Shown piece by piece: positions 1,236 to 37,048 of a DNA stretch of 64,000 nucleotides. Position 1 is the first letter of the stretch, and the number at the start of each line of letters is the position of its first letter. The notes below the pieces were generated by a model, which was not told the DNA's origin, searched no databases, and saw nothing but the letters and a program-made list of their open reading frames with translations. The DNA comes from an uncultured Caldisericota bacterium (lineage in GTDB: Bacteria; Caldisericota; Caldisericia; UBA6126): assembly GCA_964422555.1 (NCBI GenBank), contig CAYRBR010000002.1:4434-68433 (forward strand). Direction: 5' to 3'. A program made the translations under genes and the position numbers.

Positions 1236-3564
1236 AAATCATAAACAAACAACTGTTAGTATTGGTCTATTTTTTGTGTTCTTATTTGGTTCCGTTTTTT
1301 CATACCTTCATTTAGCTTACAGTGCAGAACTTAATTACCTTTCTTTACGTAATGAAAGTGGTTACAACTATACTCTGGGACAATGTTCTATACGGCTGAA
1401 AGATCCTCCAAATGGAAGTTATATCTTAAAAAAAGAAGGGGACGAACAAGACACAATACTAAGTTGTATTTTATCCACTCCTAAAACAAACATGATACTT
1501 TTATCTTCTTCATTTAAACCAAATGAAGAAAAAATATATCGAATAAAAGAAACAAAACAAGGTGATTTTAACTCTATTCCTATCAGTACTTCACCCGGGA
1601 CTCTTTATCACTTCGTTAACTATGATAAAGCACATATAATTTCATGTGAACCAAACAACAAGATTGATGTTTTAAATAACGAAAGTAAAGTTCTGGAATC
1701 TTTCACGCTTGAAAAAGGAAAAGATAACGTTTTCCATTCTCCCACTCCAACGAATATTGTTATCAAATCAGAAAAACCAATTTATGTTTTTGAAAGCTCA
1801 CTTTCCTCTGATCCGTTATCACAAAAAGAATCCGGTGACAGCGATACTACAACTCTTTATGGAACACACCTTTTCTTCTACAATCCAGGTCATATTTGGG
1901 TATCGGCATATTATCCTAACACAAAGGTTAAAATACTTGATCAAAACCAGATCCCTGTCCATAATTTTACTATTAATCCTGAAAATGGATTGTTTTTGAA
2001 TGATTTAGAAATTGGATCATACTCTCTTGTCTCGTCCTCTCCCATAACACTCCAGACTGGTTTTCTAGACAATGAAAATTATTCTTATATTTTTGGTGAA
2101 ATTAACAATGTGAATGGTTTTTCTTTTGGAGATCTTCTTTTCTATTCACCCTATAAAGATGTTAAGATAAACCTAGAATATAATGATTTAAAAAAAACTG
2201 TTTCGCTTTCTGAACCTGGCTCTAGTTCAATTGTATCAACAATTGATAGCTTTAGTCCATCGAAACCTGAATATGTATATTTCTCAGCATCCTCTGACTT
2301 ACCCTTTTATGTACTTTCTTTCTCTTCGGGTAATAATTTCGGAGGTGAGTTTTCTCCTGGTTCACATGGATCTTTCTATGATGTAGATTTTACAATGATA
2401 TCATCTAGGGTGGCAAAGGAGTTTTCTAAAGATCAGAAAAATTTATTAGAAATTTATGCAAATGAACCGTTTACATCAATCAACTTAAATACCGATTCTA
2501 CAGAAAATAATCAAACGATATCCTTAAGCAAATTTTCATTTTACGATTATCTATCAGCAGAACCACTTTCAAAAATTAGTGTTTCTTCTGATACTTTAAT
2601 CTCTTGCCTTCAATTGCACAACTATACATCGAAGGGATTGTTTTACTACGTTCCCCCTATTTCTACGACCATTTCTTATAGTTTTCATGAAACACCTTCT
2701 TCTAATGGGGGTTTATTCACAAATAACGACAAAACACCGAATTCTTTATCTTTGTTGATGGATCATTCAAGGTGGATTACATTTTTTCAACAAATACTAA
2801 ATCCCTCTTTACTACCCTTTACCGTTTTTTTTGGTGGTTTTTTACTTTTATTTCTCTTTCTGCTTCTATGGATTTCTTTCAAAAAAATTACCATTGAAAA
2901 AAACAATCCTGTAGAAAAAGAAGGTCAGTCTGCAAACAAAAATAATAGTTTTGTCCCTGACAGTAGTGATTCCGCTGTACTATCTGTTAAAAAAACTAAT
3001 TCTATTACCACTGCTCCTTCTGTTACACAGTCCCAAAAAACGAGCCAATCTACAGATAGTTTCAAAAAGCAAACAAATTCCTTGGAAGATTCTGCTACAG
3101 AAAGAAAGGAACACGCTGAAAAAAAGAAAATTCACATTGCTCCAGAACATACTCCTGTTTGGATGAAAAATAGCAAAGAAACTCCTGTTTCCGAAGAAGA
3201 TCATGATGCATCTGAATCTACTTCTAATGAAAAGAAATCTACAACCATTGAATCTTCTCATCAGGGTAATAACATTCGTAAATCCCTACGTATTCATACC
3301 CCCTCTCTTGACAAAAGTTCTGATTTAACAAACTTACCTACTTTAAATACAGACCAAGATGCTATATTTTCAAGCATTAAAAACCTGAAGAAAAAAAAGA
3401 AGAAAGACAGCATTAAGCCTATAAAAGCAAATGAACCACATGATGTAAACGTTAGTAAAGTCGCTAAGGGTAATGATCTTTCCTCATCCGAAAATAGCAA
3501 ACAGACTGAAAAAACAAGAATAAAAGATGCCTACAGGGATTCATATACATTTGATGAAAAATAA
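1228..3564 (+). CDS. Large hypothetical type-I membrane protein: signal/anchor, ~500-aa S/T/N-rich ectodomain, one TM helix, ~230-aa K/S/T-rich low-complexity cytoplasmic tail
   Basis: 2.3-kb ORF whose ATG overlaps the rnfB stop (GATGAGTAA). N-terminal hydrophobic stretch IGLFFVFLFGSVFSYL. Internal TM FTVFFGGFLLLFLFLLLWISF. Tail contains a KKKKKKK run. No recognisable family by eye. Confidence 0.6.
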   Translation: MSKNHKQTTVSIGLFFVFLFGSVFSYLHLAYSAELNYLSLRNESGYNYTLGQCSIRLKDPPNGSYILKKEGDEQDTILSCILSTPKTNMILLSSSFKPNEEKIYRIKETKQGDFNSIPISTSPGTLYHFVNYDKAHIISCEPNNKIDVLNNESKVLESFTLEKGKDNVFHSPTPTNIVIKSEKPIYVFESSLSSDPLSQKESGDSDTTTLYGTHLFFYNPGHIWVSAYYPNTKVKILDQNQIPVHNFTINPENGLFLNDLEIGSYSLVSSSPITLQTGFLDNENYSYIFGEINNVNGFSFGDLLFYSPYKDVKINLEYNDLKKTVSLSEPGSSSIVSTIDSFSPSKPEYVYFSASSDLPFYVLSFSSGNNFGGEFSPGSHGSFYDVDFTMISSRVAKEFSKDQKNLLEIYANEPFTSINLNTDSTENNQTISLSKFSFYDYLSAEPLSKISVSSDTLISCLQLHNYTSKGLFYYVPPISTTISYSFHETPSSNGGLFTNNDKTPNSLSLLMDHSRWITFFQQILNPSLLPFTVFFGGFLLLFLFLLLWISFKKITIEKNNPVEKEGQSANKNNSFVPDSSDSAVLSVKKTNSITTAPSVTQSQKTSQSTDSFKKQTNSLEDSATERKEHAEKKKIHIAPEHTPVWMKNSKETPVSEEDHDASESTSNEKKSTTIESSHQGNNIRKSLRIHTPSLDKSSDLTNLPTLNTDQDAIFSSIKNLKKKKKKDSIKPIKANEPHDVNVSKVAKGNDLSSSENSKQTEKTRIKDAYRDSYTFDEK

Positions 3565-3609
3565 GTAAAACAAGTTTATTCTTCATTTGATGCCAACTTA
3601 GTAAGCAAG

Positions 3610-4002
3610 GTGTATTCTTGTGATCAAAAAAGTAAAAGCCCTAACTTTAGTAACCCTCTTTATCAATCCCTCATTGTCCTTGATCCTGGATCAGCAAATC
3701 GGCTTTATATTGAAGGTTTCCTAAATAAGTTTAAAAAAGCTTTTATTGCTTCTTCTTCCTCTAAAAAACTAGCTCCCGAGATTAGCTCACATTTAGTACC
3801 TGTAAAACTAAACATGAACGATAAAGCCAAAGCCATTACTATGAAAGATTCCTGCAATACATTTGAAGAAGCTGGCCTTGCGTTTATTGTGTGTAAAAAG
3901 AAACACTGTAAGTACTATATTTCTTCCTATCAACTACCAAAGAAGATAATGGGTATTGAAATTCTTTCAGTTCATGAAATTGTAAAGTCACTTGAAAAAT
4001 GA
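3610..4002 (+). CDS. Small hypothetical protein (130 aa, GTG start; start uncertain)
   Basis: ORF between the large membrane protein gene and apbE. Its end overlaps the apbE start by 11 nt. No recognisable motifs. Confidence 0.3.
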   Translation: MYSCDQKSKSPNFSNPLYQSLIVLDPGSANRLYIEGFLNKFKKAFIASSSSKKLAPEISSHLVPVKLNMNDKAKAITMKDSCNTFEEAGLAFIVCKKKHCKYYISSYQLPKKIMGIEILSVHEIVKSLEK

Positions 4003-4999
4003 TATGAAAAAAAAGGATTCCTTTTTTTCTTCCGTAATTTTTCTTTTAGTTTTGTCCTTTTTTTTTCTATCATGCAGAAATACTCCCTTAAATCAAAAAA
4101 TTAAATGGCACTCTAAAACTCTTTTTTATATGGATACTTTTCTTACAATTCAGATACCTTCGGAGTCTGATTCTGATACCCTTCTTCTGTCAGTTCAAAC
4201 AATACTAGATGACATAGATAAGAAATTAAACGCATATTCCATTGGTTCTGATGTATATAGAATCAATCAAAATGCTGGGTACACACCGATTACCGTAAGT
4301 GACGAAACTATTTTTGTTCTTAAGAAATGTATTGATTTTTCGGACGATAGTAAGGGTTTATTCGACATTACATTCCTTCCAATACAGGATTTGTATGGTT
4401 TCTCTGACAAAGAGTATCGTATACCCTCTGAATTAATCCTTACTGAGACATTGAAGCTTGTTGATTATAAAAATATTATTATTAATGAAGAACATTCAAC
4501 CGTACTCCTTGCAGAAAAGCAGATGAGAATAAATCTCTCTGGCATAATTAAAGGCTATTCGCTTGATAAAATTACAGATTTTCTTCAATCATCATCTGTA
4601 GAGTATTATAAGATTGACTTTGGAGGAAACTTAGCTTTATCCTTACCTGATTCAATCCCTGTAGGGATTGAAAGCCATGAAAATAGTATCCAGAACACTA
4701 TCATGATGAAGCAGGGCTTTATATCTACCTCATCCGGTTCTCATCAGTCATTCATAAAAGGTGAACAGCTTTACACACATATAGTTAATCCAACCACAGG
4801 CTCTGCTAAACCTTGTGTCTTATCTGCTACCGTTAAAACTTGGAGTGGCATGGAATCTGATTTTCTTTCAACCTACTTTTTTTTAGCAGGTTCCAACCCT
4901 AGTCCCTTAATCATAAAAAAATACCTTCCTCAAGCCTCTGTTTATATCTATGATCTTGATGGCCATTTCAGTACTTATGCAGAAAATTACAATCCGTAA
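3992..4999 (+). CDS. apbE: FAD:protein FMN transferase (ApbE family) lipoprotein
   Basis: Signal peptide with a Cys (FFFLSC). ApbE-like motifs: YSIGSDVYRINQNAG (S-x-S-x-x-S-R-l-N), GIIKGYSLDKI, IDFGGNLAL, ISTSSGSHQSF, HIVNPTTGSAKP. Canonical position after rnf genes. Confidence 0.75.
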   Translation: MKNDMKKKDSFFSSVIFLLVLSFFFLSCRNTPLNQKIKWHSKTLFYMDTFLTIQIPSESDSDTLLLSVQTILDDIDKKLNAYSIGSDVYRINQNAGYTPITVSDETIFVLKKCIDFSDDSKGLFDITFLPIQDLYGFSDKEYRIPSELILTETLKLVDYKNIIINEEHSTVLLAEKQMRINLSGIIKGYSLDKITDFLQSSSVEYYKIDFGGNLALSLPDSIPVGIESHENSIQNTIMMKQGFISTSSGSHQSFIKGEQLYTHIVNPTTGSAKPCVLSATVKTWSGMESDFLSTYFFLAGSNPSPLIIKKYLPQASVYIYDLDGHFSTYAENYNP

Positions 5000-5486
5000 C
5001 TTAACAACTTTTTCATTGTTACTAACCATCGGTATCATTCTTCACTTTGTGGAGTTTTATATTTCCATTCCGATTGGTGGGTTTGTTTTGAAGCCAGGTG
5101 TTTCGAACATTGTTATCCTTATTTGTCTATATTATTTTGGAATCAAAGAAACAATTTTACTTGCAGTTTCAAGAATTCTCTTATCTGCTCTTTTCGAACC
5201 ATCCATTAATAGTATGACTATCGCGATAAGTTTTGGGGGAGTTGTTTTAAGTCTTACCGCAATTATTCTGCTTTTTTGTTATAGTCGTTTTAATATCAAA
5301 ATTATTAGTGTTATTGGAGCTATTCTGCACAATATCGGTCAACTTATTGTCGTACTATTTTTTATTCCTTGCAATTATTTATTATACTATTTACCATTAA
5401 TAGTTGTTTCTGGTTTTTTTGGAGGCTATATTACTGGCTGGATAGCAGAAGTGTCTTTGCAAAAGATAGATTCTATTAATACTTAG
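4950..5486 (+). CDS. Small polytopic membrane protein (5-6 TM; Gx-transporter/ECF-S-like fold suspected)
   Basis: Hydrophobic 178-aa ORF overlapping the apbE 3' end. Alternative ATGs at 4959 and 4977 reduce the overlap. No enzymatic motifs. Confidence 0.5.
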   Translation: MILMAISVLMQKITIRNLTTFSLLLTIGIILHFVEFYISIPIGGFVLKPGVSNIVILICLYYFGIKETILLAVSRILLSALFEPSINSMTIAISFGGVVLSLTAIILLFCYSRFNIKIISVIGAILHNIGQLIVVLFFIPCNYLLYYLPLIVVSGFFGGYITGWIAEVSLQKIDSINT

Positions 5487-5507
5487 CAAGATGAAATGGA
5501 GTAGAGT

Positions 5508-6545
5508 ATGAATTTTGGTCATTTTGGAAAAGATATTGCAATCGATCTTGGAACCGCTAACACACTTGTTTATATTGCTGGACAAGGGATAATGCTCAGA
5601 GAGCCTTCTATAGTTGCAGTACGTCGTGAAAATGGGGAAATTATTGCAATTGGTAACGAAGCAAAACGTATGGCGGGTCGTGTTCCAGAGGCAATACAGA
5701 TAATTCGTCCCTTGAAAGATGGGGTAATTGCAAATTTTGAGGTAACTCAAAAACTTATAGAATACTTAATACAAAAAGTAGGAGCAAGAAAAGGTTTTTT
5801 TGGGTTTATTAAGCCTCGATTAGTTATCGGAATCCCCTCTGGTATCACTGAAGTTGAAATGCGAGCAGTAGTTGAAGCAGGATATCAAGCAGGAGCTCGT
5901 TATGTTGGTTTAGTTCAAGAACCTATGGCAGCTTCTTTTGGAGCAAACCTTCCTGTAAGTGAACCTACAGGCAATATGATTGTTGACATTGGTGGAGGCA
6001 CATGCGAGGTAGCCGTTGTTTCATTAAATGGAATCGTCGCTAAAAATTCAATACGAATTGCCGGTGATGAAATGAATGAGGCAATTCTTCAATACCTTAA
6101 AAGACAGTACAACCTGCTTGTTGGAATTTATACTGCTGAAGAAATAAAAATTGAAATTGGAACTGCATATCCTAGTGATCAGGTAACAACAGCCGAAATT
6201 AAAGGAAGAGATCTCATTACGGGTCTTCCTCGAACTGTAACAATAACCTCAGAAGAGACGCGTATCGCATTAAATGACGTCTTGATTAGTATTATGGAAG
6301 CAGTTAAAGCAACTCTTGAAAATACACCTCCAGACCTTGGAGCTGATATTATTGACAGAGGTATATTTCTTGCAGGTGGAGGTTCCTTAATTCGTGGAAT
6401 GGCCAGATATATTTCAGAAGGTACTGGCATTCTAGTATCAAATGCTGAAAACCCTGTTCTTTGTGTAGCGCTAGGTGCAGGTAAAATAGTTGAAAACCTT
6501 GAAAAACTTATGCCACTTTTATTGAAGGTGAAGTATTATAAATAA
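5508..6545 (+). CDS. mreB: Rod-shape determining actin homolog MreB
   Basis: N-terminal DIAIDLGTANTLVY phosphate-1 motif, DIGGGTCEVAV, and a GGGSLIRG C-terminal motif. About 345 aa. Confidence 0.9.
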   Translation: MNFGHFGKDIAIDLGTANTLVYIAGQGIMLREPSIVAVRRENGEIIAIGNEAKRMAGRVPEAIQIIRPLKDGVIANFEVTQKLIEYLIQKVGARKGFFGFIKPRLVIGIPSGITEVEMRAVVEAGYQAGARYVGLVQEPMAASFGANLPVSEPTGNMIVDIGGGTCEVAVVSLNGIVAKNSIRIAGDEMNEAILQYLKRQYNLLVGIYTAEEIKIEIGTAYPSDQVTTAEIKGRDLITGLPRTVTITSEETRIALNDVLISIMEAVKATLENTPPDLGADIIDRGIFLAGGGSLIRGMARYISEGTGILVSNAENPVLCVALGAGKIVENLEKLMPLLLKVKYYK

Positions 6546-7367
6546 ATGTCTATAAAAAAAAGAGGCTTTTTGTGGCTTGTTATCTCCCTAGTCTTCTTTT
6601 TAGCTATTTCTTTTTATTGGAGCTTTAGTGATTCATCTTTTTCAATTGCATCCCAAGGATTTGTTAGAAATACTATAAGCCCCGTAGGAAAAATGTTCTC
6701 GTCATTTGGTTCTTCGATACATAATTTGCTTGCAAATCTACAATCCTACCCAAGTTTAGTCGAAAACAACCAAAGACTTTTGATTGAGAATGAATCATTA
6801 AAGAATGAAATTAAGATACGTGACCAAATTCAGTTTGACAATGAAAGATTTTCAATGTTACTAGGAATAGTGCAGGATAATCCTAACACATATATCCCTG
6901 CATCTATCATTTATCGAACCCCAGACTCTACTATGAATTTTATAATCAACAGGGGTTCAAATTCGAATGTTAAAGATGGATTGGCTGTGGTTTCCCCAGT
7001 TTACAAGAACAGTTCACTATCACATTTCCAACTCCTTGGTAAAACGATAGATGTTTCAAAACTCGACTCTCCAGTTTTATCACTCTATGATGAAAACTCA
7101 AATGTCAGTATCCGTAATCTCCGCAATAATGTAAATGGAACTGTATCCTTCAATTCAAAAAACAACACTCTGTATGTAAAATTCTACAAAAAAGAAGATT
7201 ATCAGCTCAATGATATTTTAGTTGTTAGTTCTTTTTCTTCATTGCCAAATGATTTACTGGTGGGATCTATTGTAGAAATTCAGCCGACTGAATCAATACA
7301 TTACCTAGCGATCGTTAAACCTGTCAAAGATTTTTCAAAGATTACAGAGGTTCTTGTTATTCAATGA
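6546..7367 (+). CDS. mreC: Rod-shape determining protein MreC
   Basis: Starts 1 nt after the mreB stop. N-terminal TM, coiled-coil segment, then beta-rich C-terminal domain. Position between mreB and mreD. Confidence 0.7.
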   Translation: MSIKKRGFLWLVISLVFFLAISFYWSFSDSSFSIASQGFVRNTISPVGKMFSSFGSSIHNLLANLQSYPSLVENNQRLLIENESLKNEIKIRDQIQFDNERFSMLLGIVQDNPNTYIPASIIYRTPDSTMNFIINRGSNSNVKDGLAVVSPVYKNSSLSHFQLLGKTIDVSKLDSPVLSLYDENSNVSIRNLRNNVNGTVSFNSKNNTLYVKFYKKEDYQLNDILVVSSFSSLPNDLLVGSIVEIQPTESIHYLAIVKPVKDFSKITEVLVIQ

Positions 7368-7840
7368 TCTACATAATTATTGTATTCCTTCAAGTTTTCA
7401 TTGTATGCCTTGATTTGTTTTTTTTTCCAAGTTTACTTCATTCCAGAACACCAATCGGCTTATCTTTGCTTTTTGCTATTTCCATGGTTTACCTGTTTCA
7501 AACCAAAGGTTTGTTTAGTATTCTCCCCGGATTACTCCTAAAACTCAGTTTTCTACCTACAACAATCGTAGTACCCACACTTATAGCATATTCACTATTT
7601 ATATTGCTATCTTTTCTTTTCAAAAACAATCAACAATCCCATGCAAACTCTTTGTTTATTCTTTTCTCTTATGTGGTGATTCTTAGTATTTTTATTTTTC
7701 AGTTTTTCTTTTCTTGCCCTAACCCTTTTTACACATTTATTCTAAATCTACTTTTATATACTTTTGTTATTCTTCCTTTGTTCTATATTTTTTCCAAAAA
7801 ATTGTTTTCGATCGCTCTCAGAAAAAAGCCTATTCTATGA
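7364..7840 (+). CDS. mreD: Rod-shape determining protein MreD (polytopic membrane)
   Basis: ATGA overlap with mreC. Very hydrophobic 158-aa protein. Operon position between mreC and mrdA. Confidence 0.6.
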   Translation: MIYIIIVFLQVFIVCLDLFFFPSLLHSRTPIGLSLLFAISMVYLFQTKGLFSILPGLLLKLSFLPTTIVVPTLIAYSLFILLSFLFKNNQQSHANSLFILFSYVVILSIFIFQFFFSCPNPFYTFILNLLLYTFVILPLFYIFSKKLFSIALRKKPIL

Positions 7841-15579: not shown

Positions 15580-15777
15580 TTGAAACAAATAGAAAAGATT
15601 ATCATCGATGAGAAACGTTGTAAACATTGTAGCATTTGTGTTCATATCTGCCCAAAGGAAGTCTTGGAAGAAGATTCAACTGGCACAATATTTGTCGAAA
15701 ATTTAGCAGCTTGTATCGGCTGCATGTCTTGCCAGGATCATTGTCCAGATTTAGCAATTGAGGTGATTACATCATGA
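15580..15777 (+). CDS. 2-oxoacid:ferredoxin oxidoreductase delta subunit (2x[4Fe-4S] ferredoxin)
   Basis: 65 aa with CKHCSICVHICP and CIGCMSCQDHCP. ATGA-coupled to the alpha subunit. Confidence 0.7.
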   Translation: MKQIEKIIIDEKRCKHCSICVHICPKEVLEEDSTGTIFVENLAACIGCMSCQDHCPDLAIEVITS

Positions 15778-16898
15778 GTTACCGAAGAGAAATCTTACAA
15801 GGCGCACAAGCGTGTGTAAGGGGAGCAATAAAATCTGGTATAGGTTTTTTTGCTGGATATCCTATAACACCCTCTACTGAGGTTGCAGAACTTTTTTCAA
15901 CTGAACTAGCGAAAGAGCAAAAGATTTTCATCCAAATGGAAGATGAAATTGCTAGCATAACTGCTGTCATTGGCGCATCTTTGGCTGGAAAAAAAGCAAT
16001 GACTGCAACATCTGGTCCTGGTTTTTCTTTAATGCAAGAAGGATTGGGATATGCCTGCATGGCAGAAGTACCCTTAGTTCTTATAAATGTGCAACGGGGA
16101 GGACCCTCCACCGGTTTACCTACTCGGGTTGCACAAGGTGATGTCATGCAATCCAAATGGGGAACCCACGGTGATCACCCTATGATTGTGCTCTGTCCCT
16201 CTTCTGTACAAGAACTCTACGAGATGACAATTGAAGCATTTAATCTTTCAGAGCAATATCGTAACCCTGTTATTATATTGACCACCGAAACTATCGCTCA
16301 TATGCGAGAAAAAGTCGAAATTGATTTATCGGTAGAACCAAAGATCTACAATCGACTCACTCCAAGACTAAAAATTGGTGAAAAATATCTTCCCTATGGT
16401 AAATTTGCTGACGACGTACCCATTATGGGAAATATCGGCGACGGTCTTGGCACAAGTATTACCGGTTTGGTTCATATGGAAAATGGCTTTCAAAGCGCAA
16501 ATTACGAAGTAGCAGATCGATTGATTCGTAGAATTAATCGAAAGATTGAAAAACATACTAAAGATATCTTTTCCATGGAAATCATTAACCCAAACGCCAA
16601 AAAAATGTTCATTTCATATGGAGTTGCAAGCCGAACCATTAACTCTTTGATTCATTCAGATCATGATGATATTGGTTTAATTCGTGTTAAAACTCTATTT
16701 CCAATTGACCCCGAACAAATTCGAAAAGCAACCGAGCATGCATCTCAAATCTTTGTTACTGAATTAAATCTTGGTCAGTATTACCAGGAGATCCAGAAAA
16801 TTCTTCCTAATCGTAATGTTCATTTAATTGAGAAAATTGGCGGAGAACTAATCCCTCCAAAAGAAATGTTAAGAAGAATTGAGGAATACAATGATTAA
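15774..16898 (+). CDS. 2-oxoacid:ferredoxin oxidoreductase alpha subunit (KorA/VorA/PorA family)
   Basis: 374 aa with typical alpha-subunit N-domain GYPITPSTEV and GPGFSLMQEGLGYA. Sits in a delta-alpha-beta-gamma cluster. Confidence 0.85.
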   Translation: MSYRREILQGAQACVRGAIKSGIGFFAGYPITPSTEVAELFSTELAKEQKIFIQMEDEIASITAVIGASLAGKKAMTATSGPGFSLMQEGLGYACMAEVPLVLINVQRGGPSTGLPTRVAQGDVMQSKWGTHGDHPMIVLCPSSVQELYEMTIEAFNLSEQYRNPVIILTTETIAHMREKVEIDLSVEPKIYNRLTPRLKIGEKYLPYGKFADDVPIMGNIGDGLGTSITGLVHMENGFQSANYEVADRLIRRINRKIEKHTKDIFSMEIINPNAKKMFISYGVASRTINSLIHSDHDDIGLIRVKTLFPIDPEQIRKATEHASQIFVTELNLGQYYQEIQKILPNRNVHLIEKIGGELIPPKEMLRRIEEYND

Positions 16899-17706
16899 AG
16901 GTGAAAAGTTTTATCATCCAGATAGATTGCCCACTATATGGTGCCCTGGTTGTGGTAATGGTATAGTATTACACGGTGCTATGGAAGTTTTAGATGATTT
17001 AAATTGCACAAAAAAAGATGTAATTTGTGTATCTGGTATTGGGTGTTCCTCGAGATCTGCAACATACACCCAATTTGATGAAGTTCATACACTGCACGGT
17101 CGTGCAATTCCCTTTGCTACTGCAATAAAACTTTGCCAGCCAGATAAGAAAGTCATTGTATTCACTGGTGATGGTGATTCAGCAGCAATAGGTGGGAACC
17201 ATCTAATCCATGCTGCTAGAAGAAACATTGATATTACTGTTATAGTATTTAACAATAGTATATATGGTATGACTGGCGGACAAGTATCACCGTTAACAGA
17301 ACCATTCAAGAAAGGAACTACTGCTCGTTTTGGTAACTACGAAAACCAATTTGATTTAGTTCAACTATTATTAGGAGCTGGGGGAACCTATATTGCAAGA
17401 ACAGGAACCTACTACTATAAGATGATGAAAAAGTATATGAAAAAAGCCTTTTTAAGAAAAGGTTTTTCCTTTATAGAAGTTATATCTCAATGCCCTGTCT
17501 ACTACGGTCGACTTAACAAGATGGCAAAACCCTATGATATGCTAACCAACCAAAAGGATATTCTTGTTTCAAAAGATAAGTATGAAACATTATCCTCTGA
17601 CGATAAATTTGGGAAATTACCCATTGGTGAATTTATTGAAGATAATTCTCAACCATCCTATTTAGAAAAAAGAGAGCAACTTTTAAAGAAGGTGAGAGAA
17701 ACATGA
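16891..17706 (+). CDS. 2-oxoacid:ferredoxin oxidoreductase beta subunit (TPP-binding)
   Basis: WCPGCGNG Cys motif and TPP-binding GDGDSAAIGGNH. ATG at 16891 follows GAGGA; the ORF track start at 16879 overlaps the alpha stop. Confidence 0.85.
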   Translation: MIKGEKFYHPDRLPTIWCPGCGNGIVLHGAMEVLDDLNCTKKDVICVSGIGCSSRSATYTQFDEVHTLHGRAIPFATAIKLCQPDKKVIVFTGDGDSAAIGGNHLIHAARRNIDITVIVFNNSIYGMTGGQVSPLTEPFKKGTTARFGNYENQFDLVQLLLGAGGTYIARTGTYYYKMMKKYMKKAFLRKGFSFIEVISQCPVYYGRLNKMAKPYDMLTNQKDILVSKDKYETLSSDDKFGKLPIGEFIEDNSQPSYLEKREQLLKKVRET

Positions 17707-18233
17707 GAGTAGAATTACGCTTTTCTGGTTCAGGTGGTCAAGGTTTAATTACCGCTACTCGTATTATTGCTAGAGCTGCATTAAGAGAAGGTAAAAATGC
17801 AATGCAATCTCAATCTTATGGAGCTGAGGCAAGAGGTGGTGCTACTAAAAGTGAAGTAATCATAAGCACTCGAGAAATATACTATCCTGAAATCGAAGTA
17901 CCTGATGTATTACTTTTAATGACAAAAGAAGCCTACCAAAAATATGGCACTACCATCAAAGAAGGTGGTATTCGTATTTTAGATAGTTTTTTCATACCTG
18001 ATTATGAAAGAATCTCTAAAGCTCGAACATACACAGAACCTTTTACTTCAATTTGTGAGGAAGAATTTAAAACACAGATCATGGCCAACATGATAATAAC
18101 AGGATATTTGATTGGTATCACTAAAGTTGTCTCTCTTGACTCATTTAATCAGGCCATTGGTGACTTTTTCTCAGATGATAAACTTACAAACAATATAAAA
18201 GCAGCAAAATTTGGCTACAATCTAGCAATCTAA
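17703..18233 (+). CDS. 2-oxoacid:ferredoxin oxidoreductase gamma subunit
   Basis: ATGA overlap with the beta stop. 176-aa gamma-family sequence GSGGQGLITATRI. Confidence 0.8.
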   Translation: MRVELRFSGSGGQGLITATRIIARAALREGKNAMQSQSYGAEARGGATKSEVIISTREIYYPEIEVPDVLLLMTKEAYQKYGTTIKEGGIRILDSFFIPDYERISKARTYTEPFTSICEEEFKTQIMANMIITGYLIGITKVVSLDSFNQAIGDFFSDDKLTNNIKAAKFGYNLAI

Positions 18234-18247
18234 TCATTCATTAAGAA

Positions 18248-19477
18248 CTATTCCAGGTCGTGTTCCCCAAGAGAACACGACCTTTTTTTATTTAAAAATA
18301 CGGCAACTAATTTACCAAAGAATCGAATCAAAACATTGTCTAGTTCTTTATGAGCTTTTTTCAACTCTTTTCGTATTTTAATACTTTGAGGACATAATTT
18401 TTCACATCTTCCGCAATCAGTGCATAAATCTACTCCAGATTTTCTTCCCCCCATGAGACCTAGTAACTTTCCTAAATAACTCAACTGTGCTGCTTTGCCA
18501 CCAAAAAAAGATTTATTATTGTAGTCACTAAAGATTCCTGGTATGTCCACGCCATATGGACAAGGCATACAATAACCACAACCCGTACATGGCACTTTCA
18601 TTAATCGATTGAAAATTACTTTTACGTCATTAATAATGTTAATTTCCTCTTCGGACATACTACCAGGTTTTGTAGTGTCAGCAACGTGAATATTCTCTTC
18701 TATATGAACTTGTACATTCATACCGCTTAACACAATTCCTACTTCTTTTTGATTCCAAATCCAGCGTAATGCCCAATGAGAAGGTGACCTGTTTTCCTTA
18801 TATTCATTGAATTTATGGATTGCCTCCATTGGTATTTTAGATGCTAAATTCCCTCCACGAAGGGGTTCCATTACTACTACACCGATATTTTTCTTATAAG
18901 CGTTGTATAAGCCAGCCACTCCAGCCTGATTATATTCATCTAAATAATTGTATTGGATTTGACAAAAATCCCAGGGAAAATCATTCAATATTTTTTGAAA
19001 TTCATCAGGCCTTCCATGAAATGAAAAACCGATAAAACGGATCTTTTTGTTGCGTTTCATTTCATTAACAAAAGAGATAATCCCGAATTCTTTTAATCTC
19101 TCCCATGTTTTAAAACTATCAAGCATATGCATTAAGTAGTAATCTATATAATCGGTTCCTAGTCTTTTTAGCTGAGTAAAAAAGAATTTTTTTATCTGTT
19201 CTGGTCTTTGTAACAAAAACGTAGGTAGCTTATCGGCTATATAAACTTTCTTCCGTATTTGATTTCTTGCAATAAACTTACCTAAAATTATCTCGCTTTT
19301 CCCTGCATGGTATGGATAAGCGGTATCAAAATAATTAACACCATTCTCGTAAGCATAAAGCAATTGGTCATAGGTTTTTTTCTCATCAATGCGAGTATTC
19401 TTTGTTGGAAATCTCATACATCCGTACCCTAAAACTGATACAAAATCCCCGCCTTTGACTAATTGTTTATATCTCAT
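18248..19477 (-). CDS. Aldo/keto reductase fused to a C-terminal 2x[4Fe-4S] ferredoxin-like domain
   Basis: AKR N-domain (GYGCMRF, FDTAYPYHAGKSE). C-terminal CTGCGYCMPCP and CTDCGRCEKLCP. Confidence 0.8.
   Translation of the reverse strand: MRYKQLVKGGDFVSVLGYGCMRFPTKNTRIDEKKTYDQLLYAYENGVNYFDTAYPYHAGKSEIILGKFIARNQIRKKVYIADKLPTFLLQRPEQIKKFFFTQLKRLGTDYIDYYLMHMLDSFKTWERLKEFGIISFVNEMKRNKKIRFIGFSFHGRPDEFQKILNDFPWDFCQIQYNYLDEYNQAGVAGLYNAYKKNIGVVVMEPLRGGNLASKIPMEAIHKFNEYKENRSPSHWALRWIWNQKEVGIVLSGMNVQVHIEENIHVADTTKPGSMSEEEINIINDVKVIFNRLMKVPCTGCGYCMPCPYGVDIPGIFSDYNNKSFFGGKAAQLSYLGKLLGLMGGRKSGVDLCTDCGRCEKLCPQSIKIRKELKKAHKELDNVLIRFFGKLVAVFLNKKRSCSLGEHDLE
18256..18289. terminator. Rho-independent terminator between convergent genes (10-bp GC-rich stem GGTCGTGTTC/GAACACGACC, 7-nt loop, T7 run)
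   Basis: Perfect inverted repeat 18256-18282 followed by TTTTTTT. Lies 23 nt after the gamma-subunit stop and overlaps the last codons of the minus-strand AKR gene. Confidence 0.55.
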
Positions 19478-19913
19478 ACCACTCTCCTTTTTTTAACTTT
19501 AACAATGTATTCTCCATGGCTTTCAAAGCTTCCGTAGGAGTTTCTATATTCTGAACCGATTTCTCGATAGGACAATTCCCGTTTTTTTCTCTATTTCGAA
19601 TAGTGGGTACAACACTTTTATAGCAAACATCTATGTTGTTGCGTTTTGCATACTCTAAAGCAATCACGCTTATCACAGGTGTATAGATTTTTTTTGCATG
19701 TAAAATAATGGATAAAACAACAGCTCCTTTTCCAACAATCTTATCCGCAATAATTAAGTCATTGTACCTACTTTCATAAAAGCGATAGTAATTTAATAGA
19801 GGTGTGATACCACGCTCTGTAGACTTATACACTAATAGATCGTGATAAAAAATGTAACAGGTAATCAATGGATTGGTTTTAAAAAGACCCCAATAGTCAG
19901 CGTTAGTTTTCAT
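19467..19913 (-). CDS. Small conserved hypothetical protein (148 aa; possibly DUF1893/TM1506-like)
   Basis: ORF overlapping both neighbours by 11 nt. Family assignment is from memory only and is tentative. Confidence 0.4.
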   Translation of the reverse strand: MKTNADYWGLFKTNPLITCYIFYHDLLVYKSTERGITPLLNYYRFYESRYNDLIIADKIVGKGAVVLSIILHAKKIYTPVISVIALEYAKRNNIDVCYKSVVPTIRNREKNGNCPIEKSVQNIETPTEALKAMENTLLKLKKGEWYEI

Positions 19914-20415
19914 CTTTTATGATCTTCTTCAATTGTTGGACCAGATAAGGAATCAAGAGTATCTGAATAACAACACCAGGCAAACCCGTTGTGATATAGG
20001 ACCAAGTACCAAATTGCATTGGTAGCGATATTGAAAAAATATGAATGGAACAAACCATTAAAAGAAAAGAAGCTAATCTTCCACAGACCATTGCTATAAT
20101 CAAAGCAAGGTATATGTTGATTTTCAGTTTATAGCCAAGATATCCTGCAACGAAACCGTATGTAATCAGCTCAAAGAACATGAAAAAAGCAAGGGGCATA
20201 GATGGCATACCAATTAAAAAACCAATAACTACGGACAGGGAACCTATCAAAACACCGTAAAATGAGCCTAACAAAATTGCTCCAACTAGAACGGGGATGT
20301 GCATTGGTAAAAAAACTTTTCCCATTGTAGAACCCCCAATAATGTGAAACATATAGGGAATAAGAACACCTGCAGCAACAAACATAGCGGTATAGGTTAT
20401 CTTTTTTATCTTCAT
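19903..20415 (-). CDS. ECF-transporter S-component-like polytopic membrane protein
   Basis: 170 aa with 5-6 TM. N-terminal pattern TAMFVAAGVLIPYMFHIIGG…LPMHIPVLVGAILLG resembles ECF substrate-capture components. Confidence 0.5.
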   Translation of the reverse strand: MKIKKITYTAMFVAAGVLIPYMFHIIGGSTMGKVFLPMHIPVLVGAILLGSFYGVLIGSLSVVIGFLIGMPSMPLAFFMFFELITYGFVAGYLGYKLKINIYLALIIAMVCGRLASFLLMVCSIHIFSISLPMQFGTWSYITTGLPGVVIQILLIPYLVQQLKKIIKDEN

Positions 20416-20526
20416 ACATATCCTTGTTAAAATAAAATCGGAAAAAGTATAACATAGAATAAAAGACTAACTATTGAAACAGATTTCAAATCCCTTGACT
20501 GTTAATGATACATTACGGACATAGAT

Positions 20527-29748: not shown

Positions 29749-31458
29749 CTAAGTATGTTCAACTTGAACTGTTTCAGTACCCGATAATTTCATTCTAATT
29801 ATATGATTAAATTTAGGAATTGCTCTTTTATCGTGAGTGATTGCAATAATAGTGCTTTTTGAAAAATAGTCAAAAATGGTATTAAATATATCTTCTTCTA
29901 TTTCGTCATCTATAGATGAGGTAAACTCATCAAGTAACAGAATCTCTGGCTTCCTAACCATTGCACGAGCCAGTGTTAATCGTTGAATCTGGCCTTGAGA
30001 TAATCGGAATTTCCTTGGATTAAGTACTGTGTAAATACCATTGGGTAGACACTCTACAAATGTGAGTAAATGCATCTTCTCCAACACACTTTTCACCCTT
30101 GCAACTGAAATTTTATGATCTCCCATTGCAATATTATCTAGTACCGTATCGACAAATAAATGGCTATCCTTTGATACATAACCAAAGTGCCTAAAATACT
30201 CTTCATCTGGAATAGAAGAAATGGGTACCGAACCCACTAAAATTTCCCCCTCTGATACTTTATAATAACGCATCAATAAATGGAATACTGTTGATTTACC
30301 AATACCACTTGGACCCACAATACATGTTTTCTCGCCATACTTAATGTCCAAGGTTAAATTATTGAAAATTGGTGGAAAATCTGGATAGTGAAAAGTCACA
30401 TTGTTAAAATGTATGTCGAAGTTTAAAAGTTCAAAATCTTTCGTTGATTGCACTTCTGCATGATCTTTCATTATTGAATCAGTACCGGTGATGGAATTTA
30501 ATTCTAGATTGCCAGTATCCAGAATTCTTTGCAACCTTTCAATATAGGGATGAATATTAGAATAATGTGTAATACTACAAAAAATATCTTGCATTTGTTT
30601 TGAACACTGCTGTAGATAAGTATGATAAGAAACCAATTCACCAATTGTAATCCCTGGATAATCTAAACATATCATGATCCCCCCAATAATGACGGGGAAC
30701 AATGTCATATATAAACCCATACTCGAGATACTACCACTGGATAAGGCAGAATTCATAGCAGAAACACCTCTTTTAAGAAGATATTTCCGAACAAAAGCAT
30801 GGAATTTACGTACAATATTTTCAGTTACTTGGAAAAAATGAATATCGTGGATGCCGGTAGTCGTGTCAAGAAATTTTTCATTTAAGTGCCGTAATTCTCG
30901 ATTTGCTTCTTTTGCTTTGGATTCTAAATCGTGATTGTTCAGTAAAATAAAATAGACACTGGCTGGTATCGCAGCTAATGACAGTAAAGCCAATTCCCAG
31001 TTCCACAAAAATAAAAAGATAAGGACAGATAGAACACTGATAAAGTTAACAAAAAAACTAATAAAATACTCTCTGAAATAATCCTGCAGAACTTGAACTT
31101 CAAAACTATAGTGGGTTAATAAATCACTTGGGGTGTGATTTTTGTAAAACACATACTGCTTACAAACAATGCTTTCAAACAATCGTATTCTAAATGACTT
31201 AAAAACAGACGTGGAATACTTGTAATGCAACTCAACCTGGATATTAAAAACATAGTACCCGACAACATAGTTGATAGTTAAAAAAACTGATATTACCAAA
31301 AAACCTACTAGGTCTTTTTGGGGAAGAATTTGGTCGATTGATAATCCCAGCAAATATGGTCCAACGATTGTAGTAGCGATATAGGCCAATGTAAACAATA
31401 TTGTAGGAGTAATATATCTTTTGGCAGATTTGAAATCAGGCTTTAGTAGTCTATACAA
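29749..31458 (-). CDS. ABC exporter, fused transmembrane and ATP-binding domains
   Basis: Six-TM N-domain. Walker A GPSGIGKST, signature LSQGQIQRL, Walker B ILLLDEFTSSID. Confidence 0.8.
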   Translation of the reverse strand: MYRLLKPDFKSAKRYITPTILFTLAYIATTIVGPYLLGLSIDQILPQKDLVGFLVISVFLTINYVVGYYVFNIQVELHYKYSTSVFKSFRIRLFESIVCKQYVFYKNHTPSDLLTHYSFEVQVLQDYFREYFISFFVNFISVLSVLIFLFLWNWELALLSLAAIPASVYFILLNNHDLESKAKEANRELRHLNEKFLDTTTGIHDIHFFQVTENIVRKFHAFVRKYLLKRGVSAMNSALSSGSISSMGLYMTLFPVIIGGIMICLDYPGITIGELVSYHTYLQQCSKQMQDIFCSITHYSNIHPYIERLQRILDTGNLELNSITGTDSIMKDHAEVQSTKDFELLNFDIHFNNVTFHYPDFPPIFNNLTLDIKYGEKTCIVGPSGIGKSTVFHLLMRYYKVSEGEILVGSVPISSIPDEEYFRHFGYVSKDSHLFVDTVLDNIAMGDHKISVARVKSVLEKMHLLTFVECLPNGIYTVLNPRKFRLSQGQIQRLTLARAMVRKPEILLLDEFTSSIDDEIEEDIFNTIFDYFSKSTIIAITHDKRAIPKFNHIIRMKLSGTETVQVEHT

Positions 31459-31521
31459 ATCTGAAATAGAGTAAAAGAATAAACTATGCTTTGAGCTTAT
31501 AGTACTCCTCCTAAAAAAGAA

Positions 31522-32151
31522 TCAATAAGAACGTTTACTCAATATTTCCTTAATTTTCATTAATCGTATTGTTGTTGAACGCTCATTTTCTTCAAGCTTC
31601 GACGTAATATCTTTGATTGTTTTTTCCAATTCTGGAATCAGAACATATTCTAATGCATTTACTCGTCTTTTTGTGAGTTCCACTATTCTAGCAACTTCGT
31701 AGATTGAAAACTCCAATTCAGCCAGTTTCAATAAATCATCCAATATCAAATCAAACTCTTTAAGTACAATATCAAAGGCTGGATTCAAACCATAATTAGT
31801 ATACACGGGTTTCACAGGATGTGTATGACTTATATGGAATTCTGGAAGAGTTATATTCATTATGTTCTTTTGAGACATAGTTAGGTCAAATTCGGCAGGA
31901 TAGTCAGAAACAATATTTCTCATTTCTTCATCTGTTACAGTTGTTCTTAAAAATAAAAAGCGTTCAAGAATCTGAGGAAGTTTGTTGCCAACCTTTTTTT
32001 CCTGCTTCTCAAATTCTTTGGCCAATTCAACTAATTCTCGGGCAAGAGCTTCTAGCTTTTCCTTAAGTAATTTGTGTCCTCTAACTGCGGTTTTATGTCT
32101 CTTTCTAGTTTCCAGAAGCTTCATCCGAGTGGGGCTTACACGTTGAGACAC
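31522..32151 (-). CDS. ntpD: V-type ATPase subunit D
   Basis: N-terminus RVSPTRMKLLETRKRHKTAVRGHKLLKEK matches the subunit-D consensus. GTG start overlaps the subunit B stop. Confidence 0.8.
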   Translation of the reverse strand: MSQRVSPTRMKLLETRKRHKTAVRGHKLLKEKLEALARELVELAKEFEKQEKKVGNKLPQILERFLFLRTTVTDEEMRNIVSDYPAEFDLTMSQKNIMNITLPEFHISHTHPVKPVYTNYGLNPAFDIVLKEFDLILDDLLKLAELEFSIYEVARIVELTKRRVNALEYVLIPELEKTIKDITSKLEENERSTTIRLMKIKEILSKRSY

Positions 32152-33530
32152 TATTGACCGCCCTTTTTATAGTACTTTTCAATAAATTCATCTCGAACTC
32201 GAGTCATTTCAGTTTCAGGGAGAATTCGAAGTAAATCCCATCCTAAATCCAGTGTTTCAATAATTGTTCTATCTTCTCGATTGTGCTGTTTGACATACCG
32301 GTTTTCAAACTCTTCTGAAAACTTAATATACAGTTGATCGATTTCACTTAAAGCTGATTCACCAAGAATTACAGCTAGCTCCTGGACTTCTCTTCCGTGA
32401 GCATATGCAGCAAATAGTTGGTTCATTAAATTGGCATGATCTTCTCTTGTTTTTTGATCTCCAATTCCTTTATCTTTCAATCTAGATAAAGAAGGCAAAA
32501 CATCTATTGCTGGGTAATATCCTTTCGCATACAATGAACGTGATACGAAGATTTGTCCTTCTGTAATGTAACCAGTTAAATCGGGTATTGGGTGAGTTTT
32601 GTCATCATCTGGCATCGATAAAATTGGCATCATAGTAATAGAACCATTTTTGTTCTTAATTCGACCACATCGCTCATAGATTGTCGCCAAATCTGTATAC
32701 ATATAACCAGGATAACCTCGCCTACCAGGGATTTCTTTTCTTGCAGCAGATACTTCTCTCAAAGCTTCACAATAGTTTGTCATATCCGTTAAAATAACTA
32801 GTACATGAATACCAAGGTCAAAAGCAAGATATTCAGCAGTCGTTAGCGCAAACTTTGGAACAGCAAGTCGTTCAATAACAGGATCATTGGCTAAATTGAT
32901 AAACATAACAGATCGATCAATTGCCCCACTTTCACGTAATGAAGCAACAAACTCGTTAGATTCATCAAATGTAACACCCATTGCTCCAAATACAACAGCA
33001 AATTGATCGCTCTTTTTAAGAACTTTTGCTTGTCTGGCAATTTGCAGCGCTAACTCATTATGTGGCAGGCCAGATCCAGAAAATATAGGTAATTTCTGTC
33101 CTCGTACAAGGGTATTTAGTCCATCAATTCCAGATATTCCAGTTTGAATAAACTCGGAAGGATAATCTCGAGCATAAGGATTGATAGGCTCACCAATTGT
33201 ACTTCTCGTTACTTCAGCAATAATATCTCCACCGTTATCAATTGGTTTTCCTAGTCCATTAAAAACTCGTCCAATAATGTCGGGGGATAAATTTATCTCA
33301 CTAGGTTTTCCACGAAATCGAATTCGAGTGTTTTCTATGTTTAAATTCTCAGTTCCCTCAAACATTTGGACAAGAGCTTTATGTTCTTCAGCTTTTAAAA
33401 CTTCACCGTGTCGCAAACTACCGTCAGGTAGATATATTTCTACCAGTTCACCATAGCTGCATCCATCTATACCGTCCACAATAACAATTGGTCCGGCTAC
33501 ATCAGAAAGGGATTTGTACTCCTTAATCAT
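32151..33530 (-). CDS. ntpB: V-type ATPase subunit B
   Basis: 459-aa non-catalytic nucleotide-binding subunit in A/B-family order. Overlaps the A-subunit stop by 8 nt. Confidence 0.85.
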
Positions 33531-35307
33531 TCGATTCCTCCTGTTTCGTAGTAAGAGAATCTAATGCTTCTTGAATATTTGATGATAAATCACAAGTATC
33601 AACCTTTTCTTCTGGAATATATTTTACACGACTTATAGAAGATCGGATTGGAAGCTTCATTATATCTACAACCTTCAATGTTTTATTCTTCCGTATACGT
33701 TGCAATGCCTCTTTATAAAGCAGAATTATGTTCTGGATCATATAAAACTGCTTCAATCCACTGGTATAAGTATCGATATCATCAAAAGCATTTTGATGCA
33801 GGAAGTCTTCTCGAATCGATTTCGCAATTTCCATGACCAATTTTTCTGCTTCAGAAAGAGCGTCAGTTCCTACTAATCGAACAATTTCATTTAGCTCATT
33901 TTCTTTTTGTAGAATATTCATTGCCTGAATTCTATATTCTGGCCACAACTCATTTACATTCTTTTTAAAATAAGCATCCGTTAATCCGGAATATAGAGAA
34001 TAGCTATTTAACCAATTAATTGCAGGAAAATGTCTTGCGTAAGCTAAAGAGGCTTCTAGGGACCAAAAAACTTTGACAACCCTAAGAGTAGCCTGTACTA
34101 CAGGTTCGGATAAGTCGCCTCCGGGAGGAGATACAGCTCCAATCACGGACAAACTTCCCTCTTCACCACATAGAGTTTTCACTTTACCGGATCGTTCGTA
34201 AAAACCTGCTACTCGTGATGATAAATAAGCTGGATAACCTTCTTCTCCTGGCATTTCTTCTAATCTTCCTGATATTTCTCGCATTGCTTCTGCCCACCTG
34301 GAGGTAGAATCAGCCATTATCGCGACATTATACCCCATATCCCTAAAATACTCAGCAATTGTAATTCCACTGTAAACTGATGCTTCTCTGGCAGCAACGG
34401 GCATATTCGATGTATTAGCAATTAGAATAGTTCTTTCCATCAAAGAACGCCCAGTTTTGGGGTCCTTTAAATGAGGGAACTCCATAAGGACGTCTGTCAT
34501 TTCATTTCCACGTTCACCACAGCCTATATATACAATCATATCAGCTGAAGCCCATTTTGCTAATTGATGCTGAATTACGGTTTTACCTGAACCAAAAGGT
34601 CCTGGTACACAAGCCGTACCACCCTCTGCCACAGGATAAAACATATCAATAACTCGTTGTCCTGTAATTAAAGGTTGAGTTGGCACAATTCTGTTTGCAA
34701 AAGGTCTTTTTGTACGTACTGGCCAAACTTGAATCATTGTAATCTCTTGCTTATTACCCCTATCATCTTGAAGCACAGCAATAGGTTCTAGGCCATTAAA
34801 TTCGCCCTCTTCTATGGAAACAATTTTACCCCCCATAGTAGGTGGTATTAAAATATAATGTTTAATGGTTTCCGTTTCCTGAACCCAACCTATTTTCTGA
34901 CCTTCTTGTATCTCATCGCCTTCTTTTTTCAAGGGATGAAAATGCCACTTTTTCTTTTTATCCAATGGCTCTACATCGATACCTCGGGCAATAAAATCAC
35001 CATGCTCATTATAAATTTCATTTAAAGGTCTTTGAATTCCATCGTATATCGCTCCAATGATCCCTGGTCCTAATGTTACAGACAATGGGTAACCAGAAGG
35101 AACTACAGGTTCTCCAGGTCTTAGTCCGGTAGTTTCTTCGTAACACTGGATATAAACTTGATTTTTATGAAGCTCAATAATCTCTCCAAAGAGTTTTCCA
35201 TTGCCAATACGTACTACTTCCATCATATGTGCTTGAGGCATATTATCTGCAACAATTAACGGACCAGAAATACTAACAATTCTACCTTGTTGAGTATCTT
35301 TATTCAT
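33523..35307 (-). CDS. ntpA: V-type ATPase catalytic subunit A
   Basis: Walker [10 protein letters not shown] and a typical A-subunit N-terminus. ATG at 35307 follows AAGGAG; the ORF track extends to 35343. Confidence 0.85.
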
Positions 35308-35647
35308 TGTTATCTCCTTCAGTTTTAACAATATCAATCCCAACAGCCCTTCTTATCATGTTAGATAACTTTCGAACTGCGATATCTCTAGAGCCAGTAT
35401 TCGTTGGTATTGATATAACAATGGCATGATTTTCCTGAATCAATAGCTCGTTTTCAGGGGATATCTCTGGGATAAAAGTTTCCGTTACAATAAAAAAGCG
35501 ATATTTTTTTTCATGAATTTCTTTATCGAGTACTTTGTTAAACTCTTTCCTATCGTTTACTGGAATTGTGTGAAACGAAAATGCAGAAAATATTCTAATA
35601 ATATCCCTTTCGCCTATAACACAACCTTTAATCCTATCTGATTGCAT
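35300..35647 (-). CDS. V-type ATPase subunit F
   Basis: 115-aa protein (IKGCVIGERDIIRIFSAF) between the C and A subunit genes. Confidence 0.6.
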   Translation of the reverse strand: MQSDRIKGCVIGERDIIRIFSAFSFHTIPVNDRKEFNKVLDKEIHEKKYRFFIVTETFIPEISPENELLIQENHAIVISIPTNTGSRDIAVRKLSNMIRRAVGIDIVKTEGDNNE

Positions 35648-37047: not shown

Positions 37048-37048
37048 C

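Follow-up and report, generated by a model that had tools for sequence, protein, structure and literature searches.

An operon for an ECF S-component-like protein, a DUF1893/TM1506 protein, and an iron-sulfur aldo/keto reductase in a Caldisericota bacterium

We analyzed a three-gene module on the minus strand of a 64,000-nucleotide stretch of DNA (the window; positions 4,434 to 68,433 of contig CAYRBR010000002.1, GenBank assembly GCA_964422555.1) from an uncultured Caldisericota bacterium. We read the three genes as one translationally coupled operon for a putative membrane-associated redox module: gene 1 (19903..20415) encodes an energy-coupling factor (ECF) S-component-like membrane protein of 170 amino acids, gene 2 (19467..19913) a DUF1893/TM1506-family protein of 148 amino acids with a deaminase-like fold, and gene 3 (18248..19477) an aldo/keto reductase (AKR) of 409 amino acids with a C-terminal iron-sulfur (Fe-S) domain. 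The module is the Caldisericota representative of a conserved module that has been known since 2011 and whose function is unsolved. Our reading, to which we assign a tentative probability of about 0.45, is that DUF1893 would be the physical hub between the S-component-type membrane protein, which captures or transports a ligand, and the Fe-S AKR, which reduces this ligand by way of its clusters.

The neighborhood was described by Iyer, Zhang, Rogozin, and Aravind (2011, NAR 39:9473; PMC3239186), who reported predicted operons of TM1506, an AKR with a C-terminal Cys-rich module, and a "5TM protein," together with fusions of TM1506 to TonB-like receptors in Bacteroidetes, and proposed that TM1506 binds NAD or ADP-ribose and acts as a redox sensor or a regulatory ADP-ribosyltransferase controlling transport. 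The window carries the same three components, co-directional and adjacent, and a link to a TonB-type receptor was also seen here in a related locus (L076). Compared with that description, the Cys module here matches 4Fe-4S dicluster profiles with two CxxCxxC(x2-3)CP motifs, the membrane protein is assigned to the ECF S-components, and the host lies outside the list of TM1506-like host phyla given there. AKRs exported by the twin-arginine translocation (Tat) route, fusions of a polyferredoxin to DUF1893, and lipoprotein forms of DUF1893, all described below, were not found in the passages of that paper used for the comparison. Neither an experimental follow-up of the TM1506 neighborhood nor a biochemical study of Fe-S-domain AKRs was found in the searchable literature. 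The window alone is a modest gain, namely, the correct annotation in a new phylum of an operon already noticed and unsolved; it is the family-wide pattern of fusions and compartments that makes the function experimentally approachable.

Three coupled genes and their products

The ORF (open reading frame) coordinates and the junction sequences confirmed the first-pass annotation, made from the sequence alone, in its reading of three minus-strand genes with an 11-nt overlap per junction. Genes 1 and 2 overlap at 19903..19913 (ATGAAAACTAA) and genes 2 and 3 at 19467..19477 (ATGAGATATAA), the start codon of the next gene overlapping the stop of the preceding one in both cases. The start codons of all three genes are credible. 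That of the AKR is so because an AGGAG ribosome-binding site (19484-19488, minus strand) lies 7 nt 5' of its ATG and the protein begins with a canonical AKR N terminus (MRYKQL..G..VS.LGYG); that of gene 1 because AAGGA lies upstream of its ATG and the Pfam match sets in at residue 4; and that of gene 2 because its N-terminal length agrees with those of the homologs. An 11-nt overlap is not by itself unusual in this genome, as others occur at 3992/4002 and 10317/10327 in the window (longest-ORF start calls, unverified), and the telling point is conservation across species. In other species, 14 loci have an 8-nt overlap and 7 an 11-nt overlap where the ECF S-component-like gene (ECF-S) meets DUF1893, and 11 loci have a 4-nt overlap where DUF1893 meets the AKR gene.

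The gene 1 product, previously noted as ECF-S-like, matched the Pfam family ECF_trnsprt (PF12822; 53.3 bits against a gathering threshold [GA] of 30.7; E = 4e-14) over profile positions 1 to 168 of 169, with a secondary match to ECF-ribofla_trS (31.2 bits). An AlphaFold2 model computed with 53 homologs (predicted local distance difference test score, 90.3; predicted template modeling score [pTM], 0.87) has the six-helix S-component fold. When this model was compared with the PDB using Foldseek, the 16 best matches were all S-components (ThiT, RibU, PanT, and FolT; query TM-score, 0.49 to 0.69; probability, 0.93 to 1.0); the best chain each of ThiT, TmRibU, PanT, and FolT scored 0.63 to 0.69, and later matches fell below 0.3. 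A small-xxx-small motif on the first transmembrane helix (TM1) is a feature of group II S-components for docking to EcfT, as known from ThiT, and it is kept here as AxxxA: position A10 is Ala, Gly, or Ser in 50 of 53 homologs, and at position A14, 41 of the 53 have Ala and 6 have Ser. By profile, predicted fold, and TM1 motif, the gene 1 product is classified as an ECF S-component.

Invariant positions among the 53 sequences are P37-M38-H39, Y86, and G112; the surrounding LPMHIP segment (36-41) is near-invariant, with its remaining residues kept in at least 50 of 53, and E82, R113, and Q151 are kept in 52. The protein is like the group II S-components ThiT, RibU, FolT, and PanT in Pfam family, in length (about 170 to 190 amino acids), in its full-length fold match, in the AxxxA-type motif, and in being encoded remote from EcfAA'T genes, as is usual for group II S-components, whose genes commonly lie far from the shared ECF module. 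On the other hand, it shares only 15 to 19% identity with the solved S-components and, unlike characterized ones, comes with neither a riboswitch nor a named NCBIfam subfamily: none of the substrate-defined subfamilies (RibU, ThiT, FolT, BioY, etc.) was matched at its cutoff; the folT family came closest, scoring 25.2 bits where 60 are required. To our knowledge, no characterized S-component is coupled or fused to DUF1893. Two Zixibacteria loci (L086 and L087, ~4380-7440) encode ECF-S homologs of 43 to 45% identity without DUF1893, situated behind a UbiE-like methyltransferase gene and convergent with birA-like and nadC-like genes, which indicates that this S-component subfamily is not strictly bound to DUF1893.

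The suggestion that the middle protein might be DUF1893/TM1506-like, for which no search had been available, was borne out by its match to the Pfam family TM1506 (PF08973; 108 bits against a GA of 27; E = 3e-31). The gene 2 sequence matched PDB entries 1vk9 and 9e9a at E values of ~1e-8 each, and the family profile matched 1vk9 at an E value of 5e-32. The conserved motifs in gene 2 are DKxxGK, NR, and CPxE. Among 100 DUF1893 sequences, D57 and G61 are invariant, and D57 is the single invariant acidic residue of the family; it aligns with chain residue D68 of 1vk9, i.e., native Asp56 of TM1506. TM1506 and gene 2 thus share the Pfam family and the invariant Asp, whereas TM1506 has GK where gene 2 has NR; 9E9A, deposited as "DUF1893 domain-containing protein," belongs to the same family and lacks the CPxE segment that gene 2 keeps. 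The TM1506 structure was reportedly published in 2008, but DUF1893 has not been given a function since, and none has been assigned to 1VK9 or 9E9A. According to Iyer et al. (PMC3239186), TM1506 was crystallized with an unknown ligand, and its Asp56 was ADP-ribosylated.

Gene 3 was identified as an Fe-S-fused AKR, in agreement with the earlier annotation, by its match to Aldo_ket_red (PF00248; 143 bits; E = 1e-41) and by those of its C-terminal domain to Fer4_9 (38.5 bits), Fer4_8 (34.3 bits), and Fer4_17 (30.2 bits), all above GA. In an alignment of 40 sequences (the window AKR and 39 AKRs from DUF1893-anchored loci), the catalytic tetrad of the TIM-barrel domain (residues 16 to 270; 18668..19432, minus strand) is intact, with D51, Y56, and K83 kept in 40/40 and H117 in 37/40. 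The Fe-S domain (residues 297 to 366; 18380..18589, minus strand), delimited by Pfam profiles and invariant Cys residues, contains the motifs C297-x2-C300-x2-C303-x2-C306-P, with x2 ahead of the fourth Cys, and C352-x2-C355-x2-C358-x3-C362-P. All eight cluster Cys residues are invariant in the 40 aligned AKRs, and the Cys-rich module matches a predicted two-cluster, 4Fe-4S ferredoxin-type domain. The TIM barrel and the Asp-Tyr-Lys-His tetrad are shared with AKR11/AKR13-type enzymes (IolS, 1PYF; AKR13B2, 8HNQ; and the Thermotoga maritima protein 5DAN); by contrast, the C-terminal domain of about 110 amino acids with its eight invariant Cys residues is an addition left uncovered by every solved AKR chain that the sequence search matched. 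At the NAD(P)H site, gene 3 has GFSFHG in place of the canonical GVSN and SGMNV in place of PGAKR/PGTGK (IPGxK/R), although NADPH-dependent AKR13B2 is also without the Asn.

Conserved linkage, fusions, and compartments

We examined the conservation of the module with DUF1893 as the anchor. The family comprised 1640 clusters at 50% identity, from which 80 loci of different species were retrieved with a 12-sequence alignment, and partners were scored by profile searches of six-frame ORFs in these loci, 13 of which had flanks truncated by contig ends. An ECF-S-like gene lies directly 5' of DUF1893 on the same strand in 43 of the 80 loci, 13 of these being single-ORF fusions of ECF-S and DUF1893, and lies nearby without being adjacent in 3 more; chance adjacency of the two genes is ruled out by the 43 loci. 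An AKR with the Fe-S domain (AKR-FeS) is found near DUF1893 on the same strand in 36 of 80. The full trio occurs in 23 loci with ECF-S adjacent or fused and in a further 3 with ECF-S nearby, so that the co-occurrence proposed as a check in the first-pass annotation holds in many genomes. The order ECF-S, DUF1893, AKR, as in the window, was seen in 13 loci, and the order AKR, ECF-S, DUF1893 in about 10 of 80. Loci with DUF1893 only have no common partner, their neighbors being 5-FTHF cyclo-ligase, TetR, and unrelated genes. The closest whole-module relative, in Clostridiaceae M8S5 (L004), has the order of the window, and its AKR is 67% identical to that of the window. Because the best matches of all three window proteins lie in Clostridia, the operon may have moved horizontally as a unit. 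The AKR itself was dropped as an anchor for synteny, given that the close AKR homologs P0003 and P0054 (Vallitalea and Epulonipiscium) stand alone with neither ECF-S nor DUF1893 as a neighbor.

Independent evidence for the linkage comes from fusions, which join DUF1893 to either partner or to a further redox protein. Among the top 150 family representatives, fusions of ECF-S to DUF1893 form five 50%-identity clusters. In two Porphyromonadaceae loci (L053, 4519-6324; L075, 4420-6255), the ORF of a Tat-signal AKR-FeS runs on into DUF1893. In the Kiritimatiellia loci L055 (4567-6372), L035 (4561-6351), and L028, DUF1893 is the C-terminal part of a ~600-amino-acid fusion with a NapH-like (Fer4_5) membrane polyferredoxin, and the AKR-FeS gene is immediately upstream; this architecture was assigned by Pfam or full sequence in L055 and L035 and by matching pre-domain sequence in L028. 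Besides, a Rikenellaceae operon (L076) encodes, in order, a polyferredoxin, a Tat-signal AKR-FeS, DUF1893, an ECF-S-like protein (26 bits, below GA), and a TonB-dependent receptor. Tandem DUF1893 domains occur as well (P0129 and P0146), and DUF1893 is also fused to ADP-ribosylglycohydrolase (DUF1893 being N-terminal; P0145), to GNAT (DUF1893 being C-terminal; P0253), and to 4'-phosphopantetheinyl transferase (likewise C-terminal; P0248). These last three fusions are compatible with an ADP-containing ligand.

The compartment of the module appears to differ among lineages. None of the three window proteins has a signal peptide, and here all parts of the module are cytoplasmic or membrane bound. 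In contrast to every other lineage, all four Bacteroidota loci (L053, L075, L076 [3057-4454], and L065 [~4610-5983]) have twin-arginine starts on AKR-FeS, with the motif SRRDFFRK, TRRDFLK, or NRREFLK ahead of a hydrophobic segment and a lipobox-like Cys, and the Bacteroidota enzymes are accordingly predicted to be periplasmic. Because the periplasm is not expected to contain NAD(P)H, Tat export makes the Fe-S clusters a plausible point of electron entry in the Bacteroidota AKR-FeS, whose clusters are possibly fed by the adjacent NapH-like polyferredoxin. Furthermore, stand-alone DUF1893 proteins (P0211, P0212, P0250, P0266, and P0270) have N-terminal signal or lipoprotein sequences (e.g., ...LAGC, ...LGGC, and ...VAGC), so part of the DUF1893 family is probably exported. 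It follows from the exported lipoprotein forms that the ligand of DUF1893 should occur outside the cytoplasm, as a transported substrate does.

Proposed mechanism and rival explanations

In the cytoplasmic version of the hub mechanism, of the Caldisericia/Firmicutes type, the S-component-like protein would bind a small organic ligand and move it across the membrane. DUF1893, as a deaminase-fold ligand binder, would dock at the cytoplasmic end of the S-component and receive or present the ligand, and AKR-FeS would then reduce a carbonyl (or similar) group of it, with reduced ferredoxin, which this organism has in abundance, supplying electrons at least partly by way of the two [4Fe-4S] clusters. 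We infer the complex, the direction of transport, the entry of electrons through the clusters, and the properties of the substrate alike. The earlier suggestion that the reductase is ferredoxin or bifurcation linked gained indirect support in its first half, Fe-S wiring being favored by the Tat-exported Bacteroidota versions and the polyferredoxin partners; electron bifurcation was rejected, there being no flavin-binding domain in any partner. An analogy to pyridoxal reductases had also been drawn, and we abandoned it because the gene context gives no support.

Searches for a substrate and an energizer were negative. Rfam models detected no riboswitch before the module, either over the whole window at the gathering score or in the 111-nt leader 5' of gene 1 (20416..20526, minus strand) at E values of up to 10, and none was found in front of the module in 32 related loci. 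In the 64-kb window, no ORF combines Walker A and LSGGQ motifs in the normal ATP-binding cassette (ABC) arrangement, and neighbor clustering of the 80 loci yielded no EcfA/EcfT-like family, the only ABC ATPase family being DrrA-like, in 8 loci. Some riboswitches and a T-box do lie close to related modules. In L042 (2755-3627, minus strand), an FMN riboswitch (114 bits) controls a RibU-like gene ~1.8 kb from, and divergent to, an ECF-S-DUF1893 fusion, and this separate riboflavin uptake is weak evidence against riboflavin as the module substrate. A lysine riboswitch is located ~3 kb from the module of L014 on the opposite strand, and a T-box just 3' of the DUF1893 gene of L041.

Several observations weigh against the hub reading. 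The substrate is not named by any riboswitch (window and 32 related loci), kinase, or biosynthetic neighbor, and the first-pass proposal of uptake followed by reduction of a vitamin-like carbonyl compound therefore stays a conjecture. Energized transport is unproven, with no EcfA/A'/T beside the module in the 80 loci or in the window. The ambiguous comparison of NAD(P)H-site residues leaves the cofactor mode of the AKR uncertain. The AKR-FeS family, with more than 8000 clusters (E < 1e-20), is far wider than the trio and mostly independent of it, and the window AKR shares no more than ~33% identity with the majority of AKRs linked to DUF1893. In addition, 24 of the 80 DUF1893 loci have neither partner and 12 of the 13 ECF-S-DUF1893 fusions have no AKR nearby, which makes the AKR an optional component. 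Lastly, the predicted compartment of DUF1893 varies puzzlingly by lineage: the positive-inside rule predicts the C terminus of ECF-S, where DUF1893 is fused, to be cytoplasmic, whereas DUF1893 on a Tat-signal AKR should lie in the periplasm. The two predictions would be compatible if the ligand, like a transported molecule, occurred on either side of the membrane.

The strongest competitor of the hub reading is the model of Iyer et al. (2011), a regulatory one that we consider unlikely though far from negligible; in it, DUF1893 would bind NAD or ADP-ribose and act as a redox sensor or ADP-ribosyltransferase gating a 5- to 6-TM channel, with AKR-FeS setting or sensing the redox state. The ADP-ribosylated Asp56 of TM1506 (PMC3239186) is indeed the family-invariant acidic residue, D57 in the window. 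The fusion partners ADP-ribosylglycohydrolase, GNAT, and 4'-phosphopantetheinyl transferase, moreover, are all users of ADP-containing ligands. The modification, however, was reportedly observed by Xu et al. in 2008 on heterologously expressed TM1506, i.e., in a heterologous host. Some DUF1893 proteins are probably exported lipoproteins, in compartments where NAD is not expected. The model is also at odds with DUF1893 behind the Tat-signal AKR-FeS of Porphyromonadaceae and with the links to TonB-dependent receptors in Bacteroidota, the latter being reported by Iyer et al. as well (PMC3239186).

It is also conceivable, but quite improbable in our judgment, that the ECF-S-like protein does not transport at all and is the membrane anchor or a holder of a cofactor (e.g., flavin- or quinone-like) in a redox complex with DUF1893 and Fe-S proteins. 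Such a role would fit the lack of an ECF energizing module next to the 80 loci or in the window, the co-occurrence with a NapH-like polyferredoxin in the Rikenellaceae operon, and the second, weaker Pfam hit, to riboflavin S-components; shared EcfAA'T modules are said to be rare in Bacteroidota (reportedly noted by Rodionov et al. in 2009). Nevertheless, the TM1 AxxxA motif, used by group II S-components for EcfT docking, is conserved, the fold match to transport S-components is full length with no redox-cofactor motif evident, and missing EcfAA'T neighbors are to be expected because group II S-components are normally encoded far from the shared module. Very unlikely, in our view, is that AKR-FeS serves to detoxify carbonyls or electrophiles in general and shares an operon loosely with ECF-S and DUF1893 without a common substrate. 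Close AKR homologs do occur alone beside TetR/MerR-type regulators or flavodoxin-like genes (L001 and L002), MerR and flavodoxin genes recur in a few of the 80 loci, and the window AKR belongs to a clade different from that of most linked AKRs. Loose sharing is nonetheless hard to square with an AKR-FeS fused to DUF1893, with a 4-nt DUF1893-to-AKR overlap kept in 11 species, and with a same-strand AKR-FeS near DUF1893 in 36 of 80 loci.

The hub reading can be extended into a more general and more doubtful proposition. In it, the DUF1893-linked AKR-FeS proteins would be carbonyl reductases that draw their electrons from ferredoxin or polyferredoxin instead of free NAD(P)H and, together with the DUF1893 adaptor and a solitary, ECF-independent S-component, would make up an unrecognized redox-coupled system for micronutrient acquisition or salvage. 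Such a system would operate in the cytoplasm of Caldisericia and Firmicutes, and in Bacteroidota it would be exported by the Tat route and supplied by a TonB-dependent receptor. Fe-S AKRs amount to thousands of sequence clusters in anaerobes. If DUF1893 is the bridge and the AKR is fed through its clusters, AKR chemistry would extend beyond NAD(P)H and S-component uptake would be coupled to redox reactions, including in gut Bacteroidota and Clostridia.

Genomic surroundings of the module

The 3' boundary of the module is an intrinsic terminator (18255..18290, plus strand; 11-bp stem and T-run; free energy, -17.3 kcal/mol; z = -4.3) that belongs to a convergent operon and sits within the last ~12 codons of gene 3. 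The codons for the nonconserved C-terminal AKR tail (KKRSCSLGEHDLE) essentially coincide with this hairpin, and the alignment column of C401 is a gap in 36 of 40 sequences. The convergent operon (15580-18233, plus strand) comprises four genes for a KorDABG-type 2-oxoacid:ferredoxin oxidoreductase, whose products are a 65-amino-acid dicluster ferredoxin and POR_N, TPP_enzyme_C, and POR gamma proteins, and it may supply reduced ferredoxin locally. Pfam family counts point to a second POR-type set elsewhere in the window.

At the 5' side, the leader of gene 1 contains TGtTATACT (20446-20454, minus strand), which, read by eye, may be an extended -10 element of a promoter; a simple promoter scan of the minus strand over the same leader found no two-hexamer site. 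Genes for an ArfB-like RF-1 domain protein, an ATPase_2/DUF234 protein, a BamB-like propeller, ferritin, desulfoferrodoxin, and a NUDIX protein are located upstream of the module, and the gene order is identical in the near-identical relative L084.

Elsewhere, judged by Pfam family counts only, the window starts with a gene for an Rnf/Nqr membrane subunit (17-409), encodes V/A-type ATPase subunits A and B (32151-35343, within ~29749-39579, minus strand), and also contains an ApbE-family gene and two Hsp70/MreB-type genes. The MreB and V-ATPase B sequences group with Caldisericia proteins in clusters of at least 90% identity. The Rnf/Nqr, ApbE, V/A-type ATPase, and Hsp70/MreB genes would fit a ferredoxin-based anaerobic energy metabolism.

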